A stretch of 64,000 bases of DNA from Gammaproteobacteria bacterium (GCA_016193395.1 JACPSH010000004.1:6549-70548), one strand, 5' to 3'; positions 21,124 through 63,626 are shown, counted from the stretch's first letter. Notes: a model not told the origin generated them from the sequence alone. Made by a program: numbers and translations.

Positions 21124-21162
21124 CTGGATTCCGGACGTTTGCTGCGCAAAGTCCGGAATGAC
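21124..21162. repeat. REP-like palindromic unit, inverted relative to 21039-21076 (BIME-like pair)
   Basis: CTGGATTCCGGACGTTTGCTGCGCAAAGTCCGGAATGAC. Confidence 0.8.
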
Positions 21163-33677: not shown

Positions 33678-33716
33678 GTCATTCCGGACTTCGCGAAGCG
33701 AACGTTCGGAATCCAC
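33678..33716. repeat. REP-like palindromic unit
   Basis: GTCATTCCGGACTTCGCGAAGCGAACGTTCGGAATCCAC. Confidence 0.75.
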
Positions 33717-33743: not shown

Positions 33744-33819
33744 TGGTGGGCCGTGCAGGAATCGAACCTGCGACCAACTGGTTAAAAGCCAGCTGCTCTA
33801 CCGACTGAGCTAACGGCCC
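33744..33819 (-). tRNA. tRNA-Lys (anticodon UUU)
   Basis: The reverse complement reads GGGCCGTTAGCTCAGTCGGTAGAGCAGCTGGCTTTTAACCAGTTGGTCGCAGGTTCGATTCCTGCACGGCCCACCA. It has a 7-bp acceptor stem, anticodon loop CUUUUAA, T-loop GGTTCGATTCC and an encoded CCA. Confidence 0.92.
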
Positions 33820-33820
33820 G

Positions 33821-33855
33821 GGGGAAGTGAAAAGTATAAAGTGAAAAGTGGAAAG
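33821..33855. repeat. Tandem 7-nt array (TGAAAAG family), unpaired half-element next to tRNA-Lys
   Basis: GGGGAAG TGAAAAG TATAAAG TGAAAAG TGGAAAG, the same unit as the hairpin arms at 40645-40760 and 41426-41511. Confidence 0.8.
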
Positions 33856-36849: not shown

Positions 36850-38628
36850 ATGCGCAGCCATTACTGCGGACAACTGTCCGCCGCACTGATCGATCGGGAA
36901 GTCGAACTGTGCGGCTGGGTGCACCGCCGCCGCGACCACGGCGGGGTGATCTTCATCGATCTGCGCGACCGCGAGGGCATCGCCCAGGTGGTGTTCAATC
37001 CCGAGCACCCGGTGCCGTTCGAGGCCGCCAATGCGCTGCGCAACGAGTTCGTGGTGCGGGTCAGGGGGCGCGTACGCCACCGGCCCGAAGGTACTGTCAA
37101 TCCAGACCTGCCGACCGGAGAAGTCGAGGTAGTAGGCGCTCACATCGAGGTATTGAACCCGGCCAGAACCCCGCCCTTCCAGCTCGACGACGAGAACCTG
37201 AACGACGACCTGCGGCTGCGTTACCGCTACGTCGATCTGCGCCGGCCGGTGATGCAGGAGAACCTGCGGCTGCGCAGCCGGATCACGCGCATCCTGCGCG
37301 AATTCATGGACCGGCACGGATTTCTCGAGATTGAAACCCCGATCCTCACCAAGGCGACGCCCGAAGGCGCGCGCGACTATCTGGTGCCGAGCCGCACGCA
37401 TCCGGGCCATTTCTTCGCCCTGCCGCAGTCGCCGCAATTGTTCAAGCAGTTGCTGATGATGTCCGGTATGGATCGCTACTACCAGATCGCGCGCTGTTTC
37501 CGCGACGAGGATCTGCGCGCCGACCGCCAGCCGGAATTCACGCAGCTCGACATCGAGGTGTCGTTCATGGACGAGGCGGCGATCACCGATCTGATGGAAG
37601 ATATGATCCGGCACCTGTTCCGCGAGGCGATCGGCGTCGAGTTGCCGGCGCGCTTCCCGCGCATCACGCACGAAGAGGCGGTGCGGCGTTTCGGCACCGA
37701 CCGGCCGGACCTGCGCAACCCGCTCGAGTTCGTCGAGATCGCCGATCTGGTGCGCGAGGTGAATTTCAAAGTATTTGCCAGACCCGCCAGCATGGCGAAC
37801 GGCCGCGTCGCCGCCATGCGCCTGCCGGGCGGCGGCGAACTGCCGCGCTCCGTGGTCGATAGCTACGAGGAATTCGTGAAGCAGCACGGCGCGAAGGGTC
37901 TCGCCTATATCAAAGTGAACGAGATCCGGGATGGGCGCGACGGCCTGCAGTCGCCGATCCTCAAGTTCCTGCCTGATGACGTGATCCAGGCGGTACTCAA
38001 GCGCGTTGGCGCGCAGACCGGCGACCTCGTCTTCTTCGGCGCTGACAAGCGCAAGGTGGTGAACGATTCGCTGGGCGCGCTGCGCAACAAGATCGCTCAC
38101 GATCTGAACCTGCTCCGCGGCGAATGGGAACTCCTGTGGGTGGAGGATTTCCCGATGTTCGAATACAACGAAGAGGAAAAGCGCTGGGACCCGATGCACC
38201 ACCCGTTCACCGCGCCGCGCGTCGCGATGCCCGCGCAACTGACCGCGGATCCCGGCGGCTGCCTGTCACGCGCCTACGACCTGGTGCTGAACGGCATCGA
38301 GTTGGGCGGCGGGTCCGTGCGCATTCATCGCCCGGAAATGCAGAAGGCGGTGTTCCAGTTGCTCGGCATTTCCGAACAGGACGCGGAGGAGAAGTTCGGC
38401 TTTCTCATCAGCGCGCTGGACTTCGGCTGCCCGCCGCACGGCGGCATTGCCTTCGGCCTCGATCGGCTGGTGATGCTGATGGCGGGCATGCATTCGATCC
38501 GCGACGTGATCGCCTTCCCCAAGACCCAGACCGCAAGCTGCCTGCTGACCTCGGCGCCGTCCCCCGCCAGCGCGACGCAGTTGAAGGAACTGGGGATCCG
38601 CGTGGCAACCCCCGCCAAACCGAAATAA
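36850..38628 (+). CDS. aspS: Aspartate--tRNA ligase
   Basis: [43 protein letters not shown], plus class II motifs ([26 protein letters not shown], and a GLDR-type motif). Confidence 0.95.
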
Positions 38629-38639
38629 TTCCTGGCGGG

Positions 38640-38766
38640 ATGGCCGCTCCCGGCCCTCCCTGGCCTCCGCGGCACCTGTACTTCCATGTGCAATGGCCGC
38701 TCCCGGCCCTCCCTGGCCTCCGCGGCACCTGTACTTCCATGTGCAATGGCCGCTCCCGGCCATCCC
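38640..38766. repeat. Tandem repeat, 53-bp unit x ~2.3
   Basis: ATGGCCGCTCCCGGCCCTCCCTGGCCTCCGCGGCACCTGTACTTCCATGTGCA occurs at 38640-38692 and identically at 38693-38745. A partial third copy follows. Confidence 0.9.
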
Positions 38767-38850
38767 GCCCCGCATCGTCGTTCAGTGGAGCCGGATTTAT
38801 ACGGCCGGATAGCCTGTTCCAGCCAGTTATGCGGGGCTTGCGCCCGGATG

Positions 38851-40638: not shown

Positions 40639-40643
40639 ACAAA

Positions 40644-40760
40644 GTGGAAAGTGAAAAGTACAAAGTGTAAAGGAGGAACTGCCGCGCACCTCCATTCATG
40701 GCCCTACGCTGTTTCCGTCTCTTTGCTTTTCACTTTCAACTTTTGACTTTTGACTTTTCA
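40644..40760. repeat. Hairpin whose arms are tandem 7-nt units (TGAAAAG family), locus A
   Basis: The left arm is TGGAAAG TGAAAAG TACAAAG TGTAAAG. The right arm is CTTTTCA CTTTCAA CTTTTGA CTTTTGA CTTTTCA. Positions 40645-40665 pair with 40721-40739. Confidence 0.85.
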
Positions 40761-40785
40761 CTCTGGCCCTGGCCCGAAACTGCAG

Positions 40786-41448
40786 ATGCACAAGGAAAGC
40801 GTCGTGCTGGTGCACGGCCTGTGGTTCAACGGCCTCGACATGTCCCTGTTACGCCTGCGGCTCAACCGCGCCGGATACAATGCGCGCCAGTTTTCCTATC
40901 CAAGCGTGCGCTCCTCCCCGCTCATGAATGCCATGGCGCTGAATGCCTTCATGCGCCGTTTGAACTCGGACACGGTGCACCTGGTCGGCCACAGCCTCGG
41001 CGGCATCATCATCCGCCACCTGCTGCAGGAATATCCGGATCAGCGGCCGGGACGCGTTGTCACGCTGGGCACGCCGCACCATTCCAGCAGCGCCGCACGC
41101 ACGCTTTCGCACTGGCTGCCCGGCCGCATCGTGCTGGGCAAAAGCGTCCACGACGGTCTGCTCGGCGGCGCGCCGCGCTGGCCGGCGCAGCGCGAACTGG
41201 GCTGCATAGCCGGAACCCTGCGCCTCGGCATGGGGACGATCGTGCCGGGGATCCCGAGGCCCAGCGACGGAACTGTCGCCGTAGAGGAAACGCAACTGTC
41301 GGAGATGCGCGATCACATCGCGCTTCCGGTCTCGCACTTCGGCATGCTGCTCTCGTCCCGGGTCGCGAAGGAAGTCGTGCATTTCCTCCGGCACGGCCGC
41401 TTCAGCGACCACGCTGCGCGTGAGTTCAAAGCGAAAAGTGGAAAGTGA
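40786..41448 (+). CDS. Alpha/beta hydrolase (lipase/PGAP1-like fold)
   Basis: ATG 40786 (MHKESVVLVHGLWFNG), as the earlier track start lies inside the repeat array. It has a GHSLGG nucleophile elbow. The last codons (KAKSGK) are encoded by the next repeat. Confidence 0.75.
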   Translation: MHKESVVLVHGLWFNGLDMSLLRLRLNRAGYNARQFSYPSVRSSPLMNAMALNAFMRRLNSDTVHLVGHSLGGIIIRHLLQEYPDQRPGRVVTLGTPHHSSSAARTLSHWLPGRIVLGKSVHDGLLGGAPRWPAQRELGCIAGTLRLGMGTIVPGIPRPSDGTVAVEETQLSEMRDHIALPVSHFGMLLSSRVAKEVVHFLRHGRFSDHAAREFKAKSGK

Positions 41449-41511
41449 AGAGCAGGAAACGCCCGCCGTTGAAGTCTGCCGCGCTTTGCACTTTTCACTT
41501 TTGACTTTCCA
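41426..41511. repeat. Hairpin with 7-nt-unit arms (TGAAAAG family), locus B
   Basis: The left arm is TCAAAG CGAAAAG TGGAAAG TGAAGAG. The right arm is CTTTGCA CTTTTCA CTTTTGA CTTTCCA. Confidence 0.85.
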
Positions 41512-41585
41512 CTGCCTTTACGCCTCACCGGCACCGGGTGTTAAGATTCGCCGAATACCACCACCCGTATCCATTCCGGTATCCC

Positions 41586-42977: not shown

Positions 42978-43567
42978 TCGGCCGACTGCGCGGACGCCTG
43001 CTGCTGAAACGGCCGCCGGATCTTCTCGTTGACGTCCAGGGCGTCGGCTATGAACTGCAAGCGCCCATGACCACGTTTTACCGGCTGCCCGAGATCGGCG
43101 TCGAGATACATCTATATACGCATTTCGTGGTGCGCGAGGACGCGCAACTGCTGTTCGGCTTCGCGAGCGAGCAGGAAAGGCGCCTGTTCCGCACCCTGCT
43201 CAAGGTCAGCGGCGTCGGCGCCAAGACGGCGCTGACCATCCTTTCCGGAATGGAGGCCGATTCGCTGGCGCGGTGCATACGGGCGGGCGATGCCGAACGC
43301 CTGGTCAAGCTGCCCGGGATCGGCAGGAAGACCGCCGATCGGCTGATTGTGGAGATGCGCGACCGGCTCAAGGGCTGGGAAACCGTTGACGGTGCCGCAA
43401 CCTCGGGGCCGACGGAAACGCCCGGCGCCATGGAAGAAGCCGTCAGCGCGCTGATCGCGCTCGGCTACCGGCCGCAGGAGGCGAGCCGGTTCGTGCAGGG
43501 CGTGGCGAAAGAAGGCATGAAAAGCGAGGACATCATCCGCGAGGCGCTGAAGGCCTCGATCCGGTGA
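42974..43567 (+). CDS. ruvA: Holliday junction branch migration complex subunit RuvA
   Basis: The GTG overlaps the ruvC stop (GTGA). It reads IGRLRGRLLLKRPPDLLVDVQGVGYEL, with HhH motifs (LLKVSGVGAKTAL, LPGIGRKTA). Confidence 0.92.
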   Translation: MIGRLRGRLLLKRPPDLLVDVQGVGYELQAPMTTFYRLPEIGVEIHLYTHFVVREDAQLLFGFASEQERRLFRTLLKVSGVGAKTALTILSGMEADSLARCIRAGDAERLVKLPGIGRKTADRLIVEMRDRLKGWETVDGAATSGPTETPGAMEEAVSALIALGYRPQEASRFVQGVAKEGMKSEDIIREALKASIR

Positions 43568-43613
43568 GTGATCAGGAGGCGGGATTTGTTGGCCGGTGTA
43601 GGGCCGGATTCAA

Positions 43614-43666
43614 TGCACATGGAAGTGCAGGTGCCGCGGAGGCCAGGGACGGCCGGGAGCGGCCAT
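43614..43666. repeat. Inverted single copy of the 53-bp unit seen at 38640-38766
   Basis: TGCACATGGAAGTGCAGGTGCCGCGGAGGCCAGGGACGGCCGGGAGCGGCCAT is the reverse complement of the aspS-downstream unit, matching 51 of 53 positions. Confidence 0.9.
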
Positions 43667-43727
43667 CCGGCCGTCATCCGATTGCGGATGGCAAAGCCGG
43701 GCGTTAAACGGGAAAATAGGCTCGACG

Positions 43728-45873: not shown

Positions 45874-45965
45874 CAGCTACCGGCTACCAGCTACCAGCGA
45901 CAAGGGAAGGCCTTGTTGCAAGACCCGAGTCCCGAACCCCGAGTCCCGAACCCCGAGTCCCGAAC
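45874..45965. repeat. Two different 7-nt-unit arrays around a short hairpin (locus D)
   Basis: The first array is AGCTACC GGCTACC AGCTACC AGCGACA. The core hairpin is CAAGG-gaagg-CCTTG. The second array is (CCCGAGT CCCGAAC) x3, ending 2 nt before the tolR ATG. Confidence 0.85.
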
Positions 45966-45967
45966 TG

Positions 45968-46390
45968 ATGCGCCCACGCAGCCGCCGCAAAGTCATGTCC
46001 GAGATCAACGTCGTCCCCTACATCGATGTGATGCTGGTACTGCTGGTCATCTTCATGATCACGGCGCCGCTCTTGAGCCAGGGCGTGGCGGTCGAACTGC
46101 CACAGGTGCCATCCCAACCCATGCCGCCCACCAACAACGAGCCGGTAATCATCAGCGTGGACAATCATGGCAATTTCTTCATCAACTACGGCGAGGCGCA
46201 GGACAAGCCGATCAACCCGGGAACACTGGCCAGCCGCGTCGCCGCCCTGCGCAAGTACAAACCGACAATCCCGGTGTTCGTGAAGGGCGACAAGGACGTG
46301 AATTACGGCCGCGTGGTGGAACTGATGGCCGTGCTCCAAGCCTCCGGCGTGGAGGGCGTGGGGCTGGTGACGGAGCCCCTGGAACGCTGA
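45968..46390 (+). CDS. tolR: Tol-Pal system protein TolR (ExbD/TolR family)
   Basis: 140 aa, EINVVPYIDVMLVLLVIFMITAP (alternative ATG at 45995). Confidence 0.9.
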   Translation: MRPRSRRKVMSEINVVPYIDVMLVLLVIFMITAPLLSQGVAVELPQVPSQPMPPTNNEPVIISVDNHGNFFINYGEAQDKPINPGTLASRVAALRKYKPTIPVFVKGDKDVNYGRVVELMAVLQASGVEGVGLVTEPLER

Positions 46391-46393
46391 GGA

Positions 46394-46422
46394 GGGACTC
46401 GGGGTTCGGGACTCGGGACTCG
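46394..46422. repeat. 7-nt-unit array (locus E), reverse complement of the array upstream of tolR
   Basis: GGGACTC GGGGTTC GGGACTC GGGACTC G. Its first 22 nt (46394-46415) are the perfect reverse complement of 45926-45947 and 45940-45961. Confidence 0.9.
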
Positions 46423-46448
46423 TGTTTCATAACATTTAAACCTCCTGC

Positions 46449-48589: not shown

Positions 48590-48649
48590 CCGGCTGACGC
48601 GCGGTCATTCCCGTCGCGCATTGATGATATCCTGTGGCCCCAACAGGTT

Positions 48650-48805
48650 GATGCAAAAGTCCATCCGTGGCCTTTTGCATCGCGCTTCGGCCAAAGCAGG
48701 GCTTCGGCCTCGCTCCATTTATCAAGCACTGGCGTGCTTGATAAATGATGCGTCCCGTCCCTGGGGCGCACAGGCTGATGCAAAACCGGGTATTGCATCA
48801 GCCTG
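48650..48805 (+). repeat. 156-nt multi-hairpin module (copy 1), tolB-pal spacer
   Basis: Stems lie at 48650-48681, 48689-48707, 48716-48747 and 48771-48805, colinear with 63466-63621. Confidence 0.85.
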
Positions 48806-48834
48806 CCAACCGTTTGCCTGAAGGAGGTTTTGCG

Positions 48835-61236: not shown

Positions 61237-61506
61237 ATGCTGCGCAAGACCCTCACGCTCATCAACAAGCTCGGCCTGCATGCGCGCGCCGCGGCGAACT
61301 TCGTCAAGCTCGCGTCCGGCTACGACTGCGAGATCTCCGTGTCGCACAACGCCAAGAAGGTGAACGGGAAGAGCATCATGGGCATGATGATGCTGGCCGC
61401 CGCCCAGGGGAGCGACATCGAGATTACCACCTCCGGGCGCGATGAAACGCGCGCGATGGAGGAGCTCGGAGACCTGATCCAGAACCGCTTTGGGGAAGGC
61501 GAATGA
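61237..61506 (+). CDS. ptsO: HPr-family phosphocarrier protein (NPr-like)
   Basis: 89 aa, with the active-site His context NKLGLHARAAA. Confidence 0.85.
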   Translation: MLRKTLTLINKLGLHARAAANFVKLASGYDCEISVSHNAKKVNGKSIMGMMMLAAAQGSDIEITTSGRDETRAMEELGDLIQNRFGEGE

Positions 61507-63248
61507 CCATTGCCCTGCACGGCCTCGGCGTGTCGCGCGGCATCGCCATCGGTAAGGTCCATATCATCGAACGGGGTCAACTCGACATCCCCGAATACGA
61601 AATTGAGGCGGCGCAGGTGAACGCCGAGATCGCGCGCCTCGAGCAGGCAGTGGCGGCTGCCAAGCATCAGTTGCGAGCGATCCGCGAGCATATCCCGGCC
61701 GCCACGGCCGCCGAGATTACCGCCTTCATCGATACGCATCTGCTCATGCTGGACGACACCGCGCTGATCCACGAACCGTTCCGTCTCATCCGCGAGCGCC
61801 GGTACAACGCGGAGCATGCCCTGCAGGTGCAGCGCGACACGCTGGTCGGCATCTTCGAGGAAATGGATGACGCCTACCTGCGCACGCGCCGTGATGACGT
61901 GGTGCATGTCGTGAGCCGCATCCAGCGCATCTTGTTGAAGCATACGCCGCTGAAGCATGAGGAACTGGATAGCCGCCTGGGCGGCTACGTGGTGCTGGCG
62001 GACGACCTGACGCCGGCCGACACGGTGCTGATGCAGCACCTCGGCATCGCCGCGTTCGCCACCGAGTACGGCGGGCCGACCTCGCACACCGCGATCCTGG
62101 CGCGCAGCCTGGGCATCCCGTCCATCGTCGGCCTGCACCAGGCGCGCCGCTACGTGCGCGAGGACGACCAGGTCATCGTCGACGGCGTCCGCGGCATCAT
62201 GCTGGTCGCACCGGACGAGTCAAGCCTCACCTACTACCGCGCGCGACGCGAGGAAGACCAGCGCTACCAGTCGGAACTCATCCATCTCAAGGGCGTACCG
62301 GCGCGCACGCGCGACGGGGTCGACATCGAGCTGCAGGCGAACATCGAGCTGCCGCGGGACTTCGAGACGGTGCTGCAGGTGGGCGCCGCCGGCGTCGGCC
62401 TGTACCGCACCGAATTCCTGTACATGAACCGCGAAACCGCGCCGGAGGAGGAAGAGCATTTCCAGACCTACGTGCAGGTCATCAAGATCCTGAGCGGCCT
62501 GCCGCTGACCATCCGCACCTTTGACCTCGGCGCGGACAAACAGGTCGATGGCGGCCGGCGGGCGGGGCCGGTCCAGTCCAACCCCGCCCTGGGACTGCGC
62601 GCCATCCGGCTGTGCCTGAAGGAACCCGCGCTGTTTCGTCCTCAGCTGCGCGCGATCTTCCGCGCCTCGGCGCTTGGCCCGGTCCGCCTGCTGATCCCGA
62701 TGCTGTCCAATACGCTGGAGATGGAGCAGGTGCTGGGGATCATCGACGAGATCCGGCGCGATCTCGATGCGGCCGGGGTGAAATACGATCCCAAGCTGCC
62801 GGTCGGCGCCATGATCGAAGTGCCCGCCGCGGCGGTCTGCGCCGACATTTTCGCCCGGCGCCTGGATTTCCTTTCCATCGGCACCAACGACCTCATCCAG
62901 TACACCATCGCCATCGACCGCGTGAACGACGAGGTCAATTACCTGTATGACCCGCTGCACCCCGCCGTGCTGCGCCTTATACACAACACGCTCGAGGCTG
63001 GGCGCGCGGCGAACAAACCGGTGGCGATGTGCGGGGAAATGGCGGGCGACAAACGCCATGCGCGCCTGCTGCTCGGGCTGGGATTGCGCAGCTTCAGCGT
63101 GCACCCGGCCAATCTGCTGGAGGTGAAGAAGACGATCATGGACAGCGATCTTGCGTCGCTGACGCAGCTTGCGGCGCGCGCCCTGAAGGCGAACAGCGGC
63201 GCGGAGGTCGCGGCCATGCTGGAAGCAGAAACCGGGGTAGATAGTTGA
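61503..63248 (+). CDS. ptsP: Phosphoenolpyruvate-protein phosphotransferase (Enzyme I; no N-terminal GAF domain)
   Basis: 581 aa, with the phospho-His motif GGPTSHTAILARSLGIP and a PEP-utilising C-terminal TIM barrel (SIGTNDLIQY, CGEMAG). Confidence 0.9.
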   Translation: MTIALHGLGVSRGIAIGKVHIIERGQLDIPEYEIEAAQVNAEIARLEQAVAAAKHQLRAIREHIPAATAAEITAFIDTHLLMLDDTALIHEPFRLIRERRYNAEHALQVQRDTLVGIFEEMDDAYLRTRRDDVVHVVSRIQRILLKHTPLKHEELDSRLGGYVVLADDLTPADTVLMQHLGIAAFATEYGGPTSHTAILARSLGIPSIVGLHQARRYVREDDQVIVDGVRGIMLVAPDESSLTYYRARREEDQRYQSELIHLKGVPARTRDGVDIELQANIELPRDFETVLQVGAAGVGLYRTEFLYMNRETAPEEEEHFQTYVQVIKILSGLPLTIRTFDLGADKQVDGGRRAGPVQSNPALGLRAIRLCLKEPALFRPQLRAIFRASALGPVRLLIPMLSNTLEMEQVLGIIDEIRRDLDAAGVKYDPKLPVGAMIEVPAAAVCADIFARRLDFLSIGTNDLIQYTIAIDRVNDEVNYLYDPLHPAVLRLIHNTLEAGRAANKPVAMCGEMAGDKRHARLLLGLGLRSFSVHPANLLEVKKTIMDSDLASLTQLAARALKANSGAEVAAMLEAETGVDS

Positions 63249-63260
63249 CTAAAGCGAGGT

Positions 63261-63626
63261 GCGGTACAGGGATGTACTGCCATTTTCAGTGGCTGCAAGC
63301 CACTGAAAATGAAGGTAAGCGAAAATCACACTTTTCGTGCTGACCGCCACGGATGGCGGGAATGCAGAAATGGCAGGAGCACATTTCTGCCGTGCTCTGA
63401 CAGGTCCAGAGCCTGTCCCCGCGCAGGCGGGGAATGGACTTGTCAGAGCGAGAACCTAACAGGATGTTGAAAAACGATTTCCATATCGTTTTTCAACACG
63501 CAAAGCGAAAATGCGATTTCCGCTTTGCTTCATTTTCCAAGCACTTACAGTGCTTGGAAAATGCCAGTGCATCCCTGCACCGGGCACAGGCTGTCGAAAA
63601 ACAAGGTTTTTCAACAGCCTGCTAAC
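63261..63626 (+). repeat. Run of ~12 consecutive distinct stem-loops, including copy 2 of the 156-nt module (63466-63621)
   Basis: Perfect stems of 13-15 bp lie at 63281-63311, 63466-63497 and 63531-63563. A compound hairpin lies at 63394-63449. No credible ORF is present, and the stretch is visibly lower in GC than its flanks. Confidence 0.85.

Follow-up and report, generated by a model that had tools for sequence, protein, structure and literature searches.

We found that two hairpin-rich modules in the 64,000-nt stretch of DNA analysed here (hereafter the window), one between tolB and pal and the other downstream of a gene for an enzyme I family protein, are very probably copies of a non-coding mobile element, an IS5-type MITE. 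The kind of element is already known, and the family itself is apparently undescribed. Its identification as a MITE comes from a short non-coding length, terminal inverted repeats, a duplication of fixed size (4 bp), many dispersed copies and presence/absence at an orthologous site; ends typical of one clade and a 4-bp YTAR/CWAR duplication mark it as an IS5 derivative. An earlier note, made from the sequence alone, had read these modules as a structured RNA (or cruciform DNA) and not a decaying repeat, and had named MITE-type terminal repeats with target-site duplications as the finding that would speak against this. Both are present in the element and, together with an empty site and IS5-family ends, they speak against a structured RNA of the host that is dedicated to tol-pal.

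Boundaries and insertion sites of the two copies

The two copies and a decayed third one lie in the following setting:

48589, plus strand, end of the tolB open reading frame (read in the sequence; TolB identity by NCBIfam)
48640-48643, plus strand, left target-site duplication CCAA of copy 1, identical to the CCAA at 48806-48809
48644-48805, plus strand, copy 1 of the element, in the tolB-pal spacer, 162 nt, in the orientation of the operon
48644-48662, plus strand, 5' terminal inverted repeat of copy 1, CAGGTTGATGCAAAAGTCC, whose inner part is the 5' arm of hairpin 1
48806-48809, plus strand, right target-site duplication CCAA of copy 1
48823-48827, plus strand, GGAGG, ribosome-binding site of pal
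48835, plus strand, pal start (read in the sequence; Pal identity by NCBIfam)
61503-63248, gene for an enzyme I family protein (581 aa, PTS_I_fam), called ptsP in the earlier note
63241-63368, minus strand, decayed third copy (covariance model R1, 45 bits, E about 1e-13)
63456-63459, plus strand, left target-site duplication CTAA of copy 2, identical to the CTAA at 63622-63625
63460-63621, plus strand, copy 2 of the element, 162 nt, between convergent genes in the spacer that follows the enzyme I gene
63622-63625, plus strand, right target-site duplication CTAA of copy 2

On rereading, the sequence description and the stem coordinates of the earlier note were confirmed, and the paired substitutions that it listed are present. 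Its colinear twin downstream of ptsP was likewise recovered by alignment, copies 1 and 2 being colinear with a mean column identity of 78%. The 156-nt colinear span that it described stands, but not as the full extent of the module: the true unit is 162 nt, counted from CAGG, and both copies have CAGG at the start and CCTG at the end. The GC(C/T)AAC that it saw trailing each copy is also there and contains the second copy of the 4-bp flanking duplication (CCAA or CTAA). The G+C content is 56% in copy 1 and 44% in copy 2, with 64% for the window as a whole. The tolB stop is followed by 55 nt, copy 1 and then 29 nt up to the pal start, so arranged that the ribosome-binding site of pal is intact. 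Among the matches listed in the family search described below, the closest relative of copy 1 is L033:6303-6472. The third copy starts at the stop codon of the enzyme I gene and is without terminal-repeat cores; the inner part of its hairpin 1 and its hairpins 3 and 4 are recognisable, the core of hairpin 3 now reading CAGTGGC...GCCACTG.

The reverse complement of the 3' end of copy 1 (48787-48805) reads CAGGCTGATGCAATACCCG, and its terminal inverted repeats consist of CAGGTTGATGCAAAAG with the reverse complement of TTGCATCAGCCTG. Copy 2 is bounded by CAGGATGTTGAAAAAC ... GTTTTTCAACAGCCTG, the first pairing with the reverse complement of the second. The ends of the two window copies can be written as CAGGnTG(A/T)TG(C/A)AAAA(G/C) and its complement, and in all full-length members of the family the 5' end reads CAGGnTG(T/C/A)TG(A/C)AAAA(G/C), the 3' end being the reverse complement of this sequence.

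In 35 of 50 anchored relatives, the 4-mers to the left and right of the element were identical, against 12.7 expected under independence, and none of 100000 permutations reached 35 matched flanks. The matched flanks include the non-palindromic pairs TTAG/TTAG, CTAA/CTAA and CTAT/CTAT, which indicates a direct duplication and not a part of the inverted repeat. A TA-only duplication of the IS630 type was rejected, since bases one and four of the 4-mer, too, are the same on the left and the right. It should be noted that the CCAA at the tolB-pal copy deviates from the YTAR consensus at the second base.

Related tol-pal loci provide the empty site. In locus L124, whose Pal is 86% identical, the tolB-pal spacer measures 78 nt and holds no element; when 48644-48809 is subtracted from the spacer of the window, 79 nt are left that are colinear with it. 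The element is also absent between tolB and pal in locus L125 (Pal 77% identical), and both loci carry a single TCAA at the homologous position. Since this site is empty in both, the tolB-pal copy is a recent, precise and lineage-specific insertion. Elsewhere in the same gene cluster of L125, downstream of cpoB/ybgF, a divergent copy (48 bits) was seen on the minus strand at L125:4493-4661. An empty site was also sought for copy 2 by way of the two proteins that flank it; this yielded nothing beyond a contig broken at the repeat.

The target sequence also accounts for where copies are found. In 52 anchored full-length copies, two from the window and 50 from loci L007-L123, we examined the reading frame that ends in the TAA or TAG of the duplicated 4-mer. 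This frame was open over 100 codons or more at 31 of 91 sides, whereas the two control frames gave 9 and 19. Where genomes are rich in G+C, an element with a YTAR target will often land on a gene's own stop codon, which explains why copies lie just downstream of genes. Tandem insertions were observed at L033:6290-6310 and L079:4140-4160, where the second element begins at the terminal CTAA of the first and the two elements share one target duplicate.

Relatives and IS5-type ends

A pattern made from the conserved core and scanned across one genome per species matched at least 120 stretches, and at least about 70 of the matches listed, from many gammaproteobacterial genomes, are clear relatives. 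The carriers include Arenicellales, Lysobacterales, Dyella, Rhodanobacter, Ectothiorhodospiraceae and Wenzhouxiangellaceae, and one MAG has at least 25 copies. The covariance model R1, built from 17 dereplicated members, recovered at least about 85 distinct copies in the fetched loci and, in the window, the two intact copies (132 bits and E 3.7e-43 for copy 1; 156 bits and E 3.1e-51 for copy 2) as well as the decayed third copy. A further covariance-model match at 43100-43247 (16.8 bits) was inspected and taken as generic hairpins.

Family members measure 141-169 nt between the duplications, well within the limit of about 300-500 bp for prokaryotic MITEs, and fall into length classes of 141, 152, 162 and 169 nt. 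These classes differ by non-multiples of three, and therefore no reading frame is conserved; open reading frames of 63-64 aa across copy 2 are absent from copy 1. All short-read contigs that encode the identical TolB, Pal and enzyme I are broken within these elements, as is usual for short-read assemblies at repeats.

The link to insertion sequences lies in the ends. A BLAST comparison of copy 2 with plasmids gave only matches of 20-35 nt, all to its 3' end, and three of these are the ends of other elements: the right end of an IS5-family element of Burkholderia ubonensis, the right end of a disrupted IS5-family element of the gammaproteobacterium Halioglobus pacificus, and a different MITE of 171 nt on Pseudomonas aeruginosa RW109 plasmid 1 (LT969519, L128:2846-3016). 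The latter has the same ends as the window copies (CAGGCCGTTGAAAAAC ... GTTTTTCAACAGCCTG) and the flanks CTAG/CTAA, but an unrelated interior, which indicates that ends of this IS5 clade occur on MITEs of several families. The Burkholderia transposase matches the NCBIfam model NF033581 (IS5 family) with 257 bits, for a cutoff of 140, and also Pfam DUF772 and DDE_Tnp_1.

Full-length elements with such ends were delimited on plasmids and in metagenomes. Those on the Mesorhizobium sp. AR07 plasmid NZ_CP080526 and the Paracoccus liaowanqingii plasmid NZ_CP040765 have CAGGTTGTTGAAAAAGGG...CTTCTTCAACAGCCTG and CAGGCCGCTGAAATAGTCG...CGACTATTTCAGCAGCCTG as their ends, respectively, each directly between two CTAG. 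With the transposase alignment as query, 80 metagenome loci were retrieved, and in 47 of them an element of 1.25-1.55 kb could be delimited, with ends CAGGCTG(T/C)TGAA(A/G)AAG and with CTAG (on both sides 28 times), CTAA, TTAG or CTAT as flanks. End variants among the full-length metagenome elements include CTGCAAAAC and GATGAAAAAC, with C or A at the variable positions; the positions that differ between copies 1 and 2 thus vary among autonomous elements too. IS5 is known to duplicate the 4-bp target C(A/T)A(G/A) (PMC11677980).

The element of the window resembles IS5_4-type elements (NCBIfam transpos_IS5_4, DUF772 and DDE_Tnp_1) in its inverted ends, CAGG(n)TG(T/C)TGAA(A/G)AAG in the latter, and its family shares with them the 4-bp duplication CTAG/CTAA/TTAG/CTAT. 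It differs from them in being 162 nt long, in having no transposase gene and in having each end doubled into a hairpin. Such a non-coding DNA of about 140-170 nt, carrying the terminal inverted repeats of an IS5-family clade, would presumably be moved in trans by a DDE transposase of that clade. The enzyme would recognise the 16-19-nt ends CAGGnTG(T/C/A)TG(A/C)AAAA(G/C). Its cleavage of a YTAR-like tetranucleotide, staggered by 4 nt, would then account for the 4-bp direct duplication on both sides.

When the MITE interior profile was compared with the 80 full-length elements, similarity extended only over the terminal ~25 nt. The MITE does not appear to be a simple internal-deletion derivative of the compared elements, all of which are distant members of the clade. 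Searching the 64-kb window and the MITE-bearing loci with the transposase by tblastn gave no match, and end motifs paired 0.4-4 kb apart in the MITE loci were only chance pairs or pairs formed by two MITEs.

Hairpins, pairing and the tolB-pal spacer

The hairpins of copy 1 are arranged as follows:

48650-48681, plus strand, hairpin 1, terminal-repeat core with an inverted inner copy, seen in sequence and fold
48682-48713, plus strand, hairpin 2, a variable module, seen in the fold
48716-48747, plus strand, hairpin 3, CATTTATCAAGCAC-tggc-GTGCTTGATAAATG, the most conserved core
48749-48770, plus strand, hairpin 4, with the loop GTCCCT, seen in the fold
48771-48805, plus strand, hairpin 5, internal left-end-like repeat paired with the 3' terminal inverted repeat

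As RNA, both copies have minimum-free-energy folds of five consecutive hairpins, with -89.7 kcal/mol (z -8.6) for copy 1 and -79.8 kcal/mol (z -10.9) for copy 2, and 0 of 200 shuffles equalled the fold of either copy. The sequence of hairpin 2 is wholly different between subfamilies, yet it is a palindrome in every one of them.

The earlier note had counted seven compensatory pairs between the two copies and had concluded that the fold, rather than the sequence, is under selection. The seven pairs are present, but they are not independent events. The end motif occurs four times per copy (GATGCAAAA in copy 1 and GTTGAAAAA in copy 2), stems 1 and 5 share its variant, and five of the seven pairs come down to three base differences: one at the inner end of stem 1 and two in the end motif, each of which appears in both terminal hairpins (1 and 5). 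Hairpins 1 and 5 each consist of the terminal-repeat core and an inverted copy of it, and copies 1 and 2 represent two subfamilies with different end variants. The four occurrences would have to change together, and it is because these transposase-site motifs change together that the differences between the copies look compensatory. Hairpins 2-4 are palindromic modules independent of each other, probably kept as dyad-symmetric DNA.

Conservation of pairing was also evaluated across the family, in an alignment (A3) of 17 dereplicated relatives with 41 pairs. In total, 95% of the stem cells are paired, compared with 81.6% in column shuffles and 35-41% when the partners are slid, and 22 of the 41 pairs have changes on both sides. 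Such changes affect 8 of 12 pairs in helix 1, 8 of 14 pairs in helix 2 (hairpin 3, 97.9% paired) and 5 of 6 pairs in helix 3 (hairpin 4). The dyad symmetry of the element, or its fold, is conserved beyond the sequence. Some G:U is found in 18 pairs and some A:C also in 18 pairs; without two inherited positions, the cell counts are 24 for G:U and 50 for A:C, and G:U is thus not favoured over A:C in the stems. Based on heuristic gene calls, copies in co-directional spacers lie in the same direction as the genes in 7 cases and in the opposite direction in 12, giving no orientation preference relative to genes in such spacers, and 15 copies are in convergent spacers versus 6 in divergent ones. Strand symmetry and the lack of orientation bias speak against an RNA function tied to one strand and favour a property of the element at the DNA level.

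These results bear directly on what the earlier note had proposed for copy 1, namely a host cis-regulatory structured RNA in the tolB-pal mRNA, exerting a processing or stability control that uncouples pal from tolB. Copy 1 does lie in the operon, in sense orientation and just upstream of the pal ribosome-binding site; it is very stably folded, covariation keeps its stems across the family, and variants are rarer in stems than in loops. However, the element is missing from the tolB-pal spacer of the closest relatives found, it recurs as a mobile repeat with terminal repeats and target duplications in unrelated contexts, it is found in both orientations relative to genes, its stems show no excess of G:U over A:C, and it matches no Rfam family. 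A host RNA is very unlikely and, as the origin of the element, largely refuted. Of the view that the fold is under selection, the conserved dyad symmetry stands and the host structured RNA dedicated to tol-pal falls; the cruciform DNA that the note gave as an alternative is closer to the evidence, the pairing signal being strand-symmetric.

In agreement with the absence of a match to Rfam, a scan of the whole window against Rfam 15 gave only a tRNA at the gathering threshold, and E-value scans of both copies gave only weak chance matches to microRNA and snoRNA models. The earlier note had recognised no named RNA family, and the comparison of the window and both copies with Rfam, which returned nothing relevant, bears this out. 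A PrrB/RsmZ match at 63401-63529 (19 bits, for a gathering score of 44) was treated as noise.

A signal of another kind comes from young copies. Within three young subfamilies of 15, 12 and 7 copies, aligned with MAFFT, variants are about three times rarer at paired than at unpaired sites, with 0.075 singletons per paired site versus 0.234 per unpaired site. This deficit hints at a constraint on the stems beyond what a plain MITE model explains; it may be caused by selection on source copies for mobility, by palindrome-templated repair or by hypermutable loops. Pointing in the direction of functional nucleic-acid folds, as opposed to passive cargo, are this threefold deficit, the TCCnTG motif common to the loops of hairpins 4 and 1, and the invariant CAAGCAC/GTGCTTG core. 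If the inner palindromes had such a role, which we consider quite unlikely, they could be single-stranded or cruciform DNA structures needed for mobilisation by an IS5-type transposase, or they could have been exapted, for example at tolB-pal, as modules for the processing or stability of RNA.

A MITE origin is compatible with a secondary effect on the host genes. The co-transcribed hairpins could change the relative expression of tolB and pal, either by being cleaved by RNase III or RNase E or by blocking 3' exonucleases. Precedents reviewed in PMC10969869, namely the cleavage by RNase III of transcripts that contain Correia elements and the RNase E-dependent change in mRNA decay caused by ERIC elements, speak for such an effect, as does the sense orientation of copy 1 in an operon spacer. 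Gene order suggests that the spacer is transcribed, in which case the mRNA would gain about 90 kcal/mol of extra structure. Promoter and terminator scans found no site inside copy 1 or copy 2, the single plus-strand terminator-like site of the scan lying in the decayed third copy; with no terminator predicted in copy 1, read-through into pal is plausible. On the other hand, gene order is the sole basis for the operon structure, relatives do without the element, and nothing sets the tolB-pal copy apart from neutral insertions elsewhere. A side effect of copy 1 on tolB and pal expression, whether through RNase cleavage or through protection from exonucleases, is therefore plausible in principle but in our view unlikely.

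Other repeat families and significance

REP elements neither share terminal inverted repeats with a DDE insertion sequence nor duplicate their target site, and they are linked to RAYT transposases. Like the family described here, REP/BIME and the BOX elements of pneumococcus are strings of palindromes that are extragenic and lie mostly downstream of genes. The modules could be pictured as a REP/BIME-like palindrome cluster whose spread depends on the action of a RAYT (IS200/IS605-like) transposase on hairpins in single-stranded form, and not on DDE cut-and-paste. They are indeed built of consecutive palindromes, occupy extragenic spacers near gene 3' ends (15 convergent against 6 divergent cases), and have a stem constraint that looks DNA-level and strand-symmetric. 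REP/BIME are nevertheless without the hallmarks of DDE-type transposition found here, that is, the terminal repeats shared with a DDE insertion sequence and the target-site duplication; the insertion is a precise unit of 162+4 nt, and no RAYT gene was seen in the window by ORF inspection and transposase tblastn. Identity with REP/BIME was rejected because of the terminal repeats and the 4-bp duplication, and spread by RAYT is extremely improbable.

Other parallels to the IS5-type MITE are Correia/NEMIS of Neisseria and ERIC/YPAL of enterobacteria, bacterial MITEs whose transcripts fold, which are also non-coding elements of 100-200 nt with terminal inverted repeats and target duplications, present in tens to hundreds of intergenic copies. 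They are often co-transcribed, and in some documented cases mRNA processing is altered (PMC10969869). Correia and ERIC have a TA duplication and form mainly one long end-to-end hairpin, whereas the present family has a 4-bp YTAR duplication and five separate local hairpins and shows no sequence similarity to them. Identity with Correia/ERIC was rejected on the basis of the 4-bp duplication and because neither Rfam nor the literature gave a match to the end sequences. Searches of the open-access literature by end sequences or by MITE/IS5/CTAG and Xanthomonadales keywords (ISfinder being outside the scope) found no description of the family.

Repeats of other types were observed in the window. 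Hairpins with arms made of tandem heptamer arrays (AAAGTGG AAAGTGA AAAGTAC ... facing CTTTTCA CTTTCAA CTTTTGA ...) occur at 40640-40762, 41426-41516 and 33822-33855; two are inverted array pairs about 0.8 kb apart, and a lone array adjoins the tRNA gene at 33747-33819. In the tol-pal operon itself, tolR (45968-46390) is flanked by inverted CCCGAGT/CCCGAAC heptamer arrays at 45924-45965 and 46394-46424, another repeat type that occupies the tolQ-tolR and tolR-tolA spacers. Three tandem 53-nt units at 38626-38784 have a 62-nt inverted copy (94% complementary) 4.9 kb downstream, at 43611-43672, and the two sites could delimit a further segment that is mobile or can invert. Two 38-nt arms in inverted orientation (GTCATTCCGGAC...GTCCGGAATGAC type, 89% complementary) are found at 21125-21162 and 33678-33715, 12.5 kb apart, one of them adjoining the tRNA gene.

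The reading as an IS5-type MITE has consequences beyond this locus. There is no conserved tol-pal riboregulator here, and a false lead is removed. 'Compensatory' stem changes produced by repeated transposase sites and dyad-symmetric DNA call for caution in covariation-based RNA discovery. The elements also explain breaks in short-read assemblies at such sites in these organisms. The MITE family delineated here, apparently undescribed so far, is widespread in uncultured Gammaproteobacteria and linked to a specific IS5 clade, and its YTAR/stop-codon preference places many of its copies in 3' untranslated regions and operon spacers.
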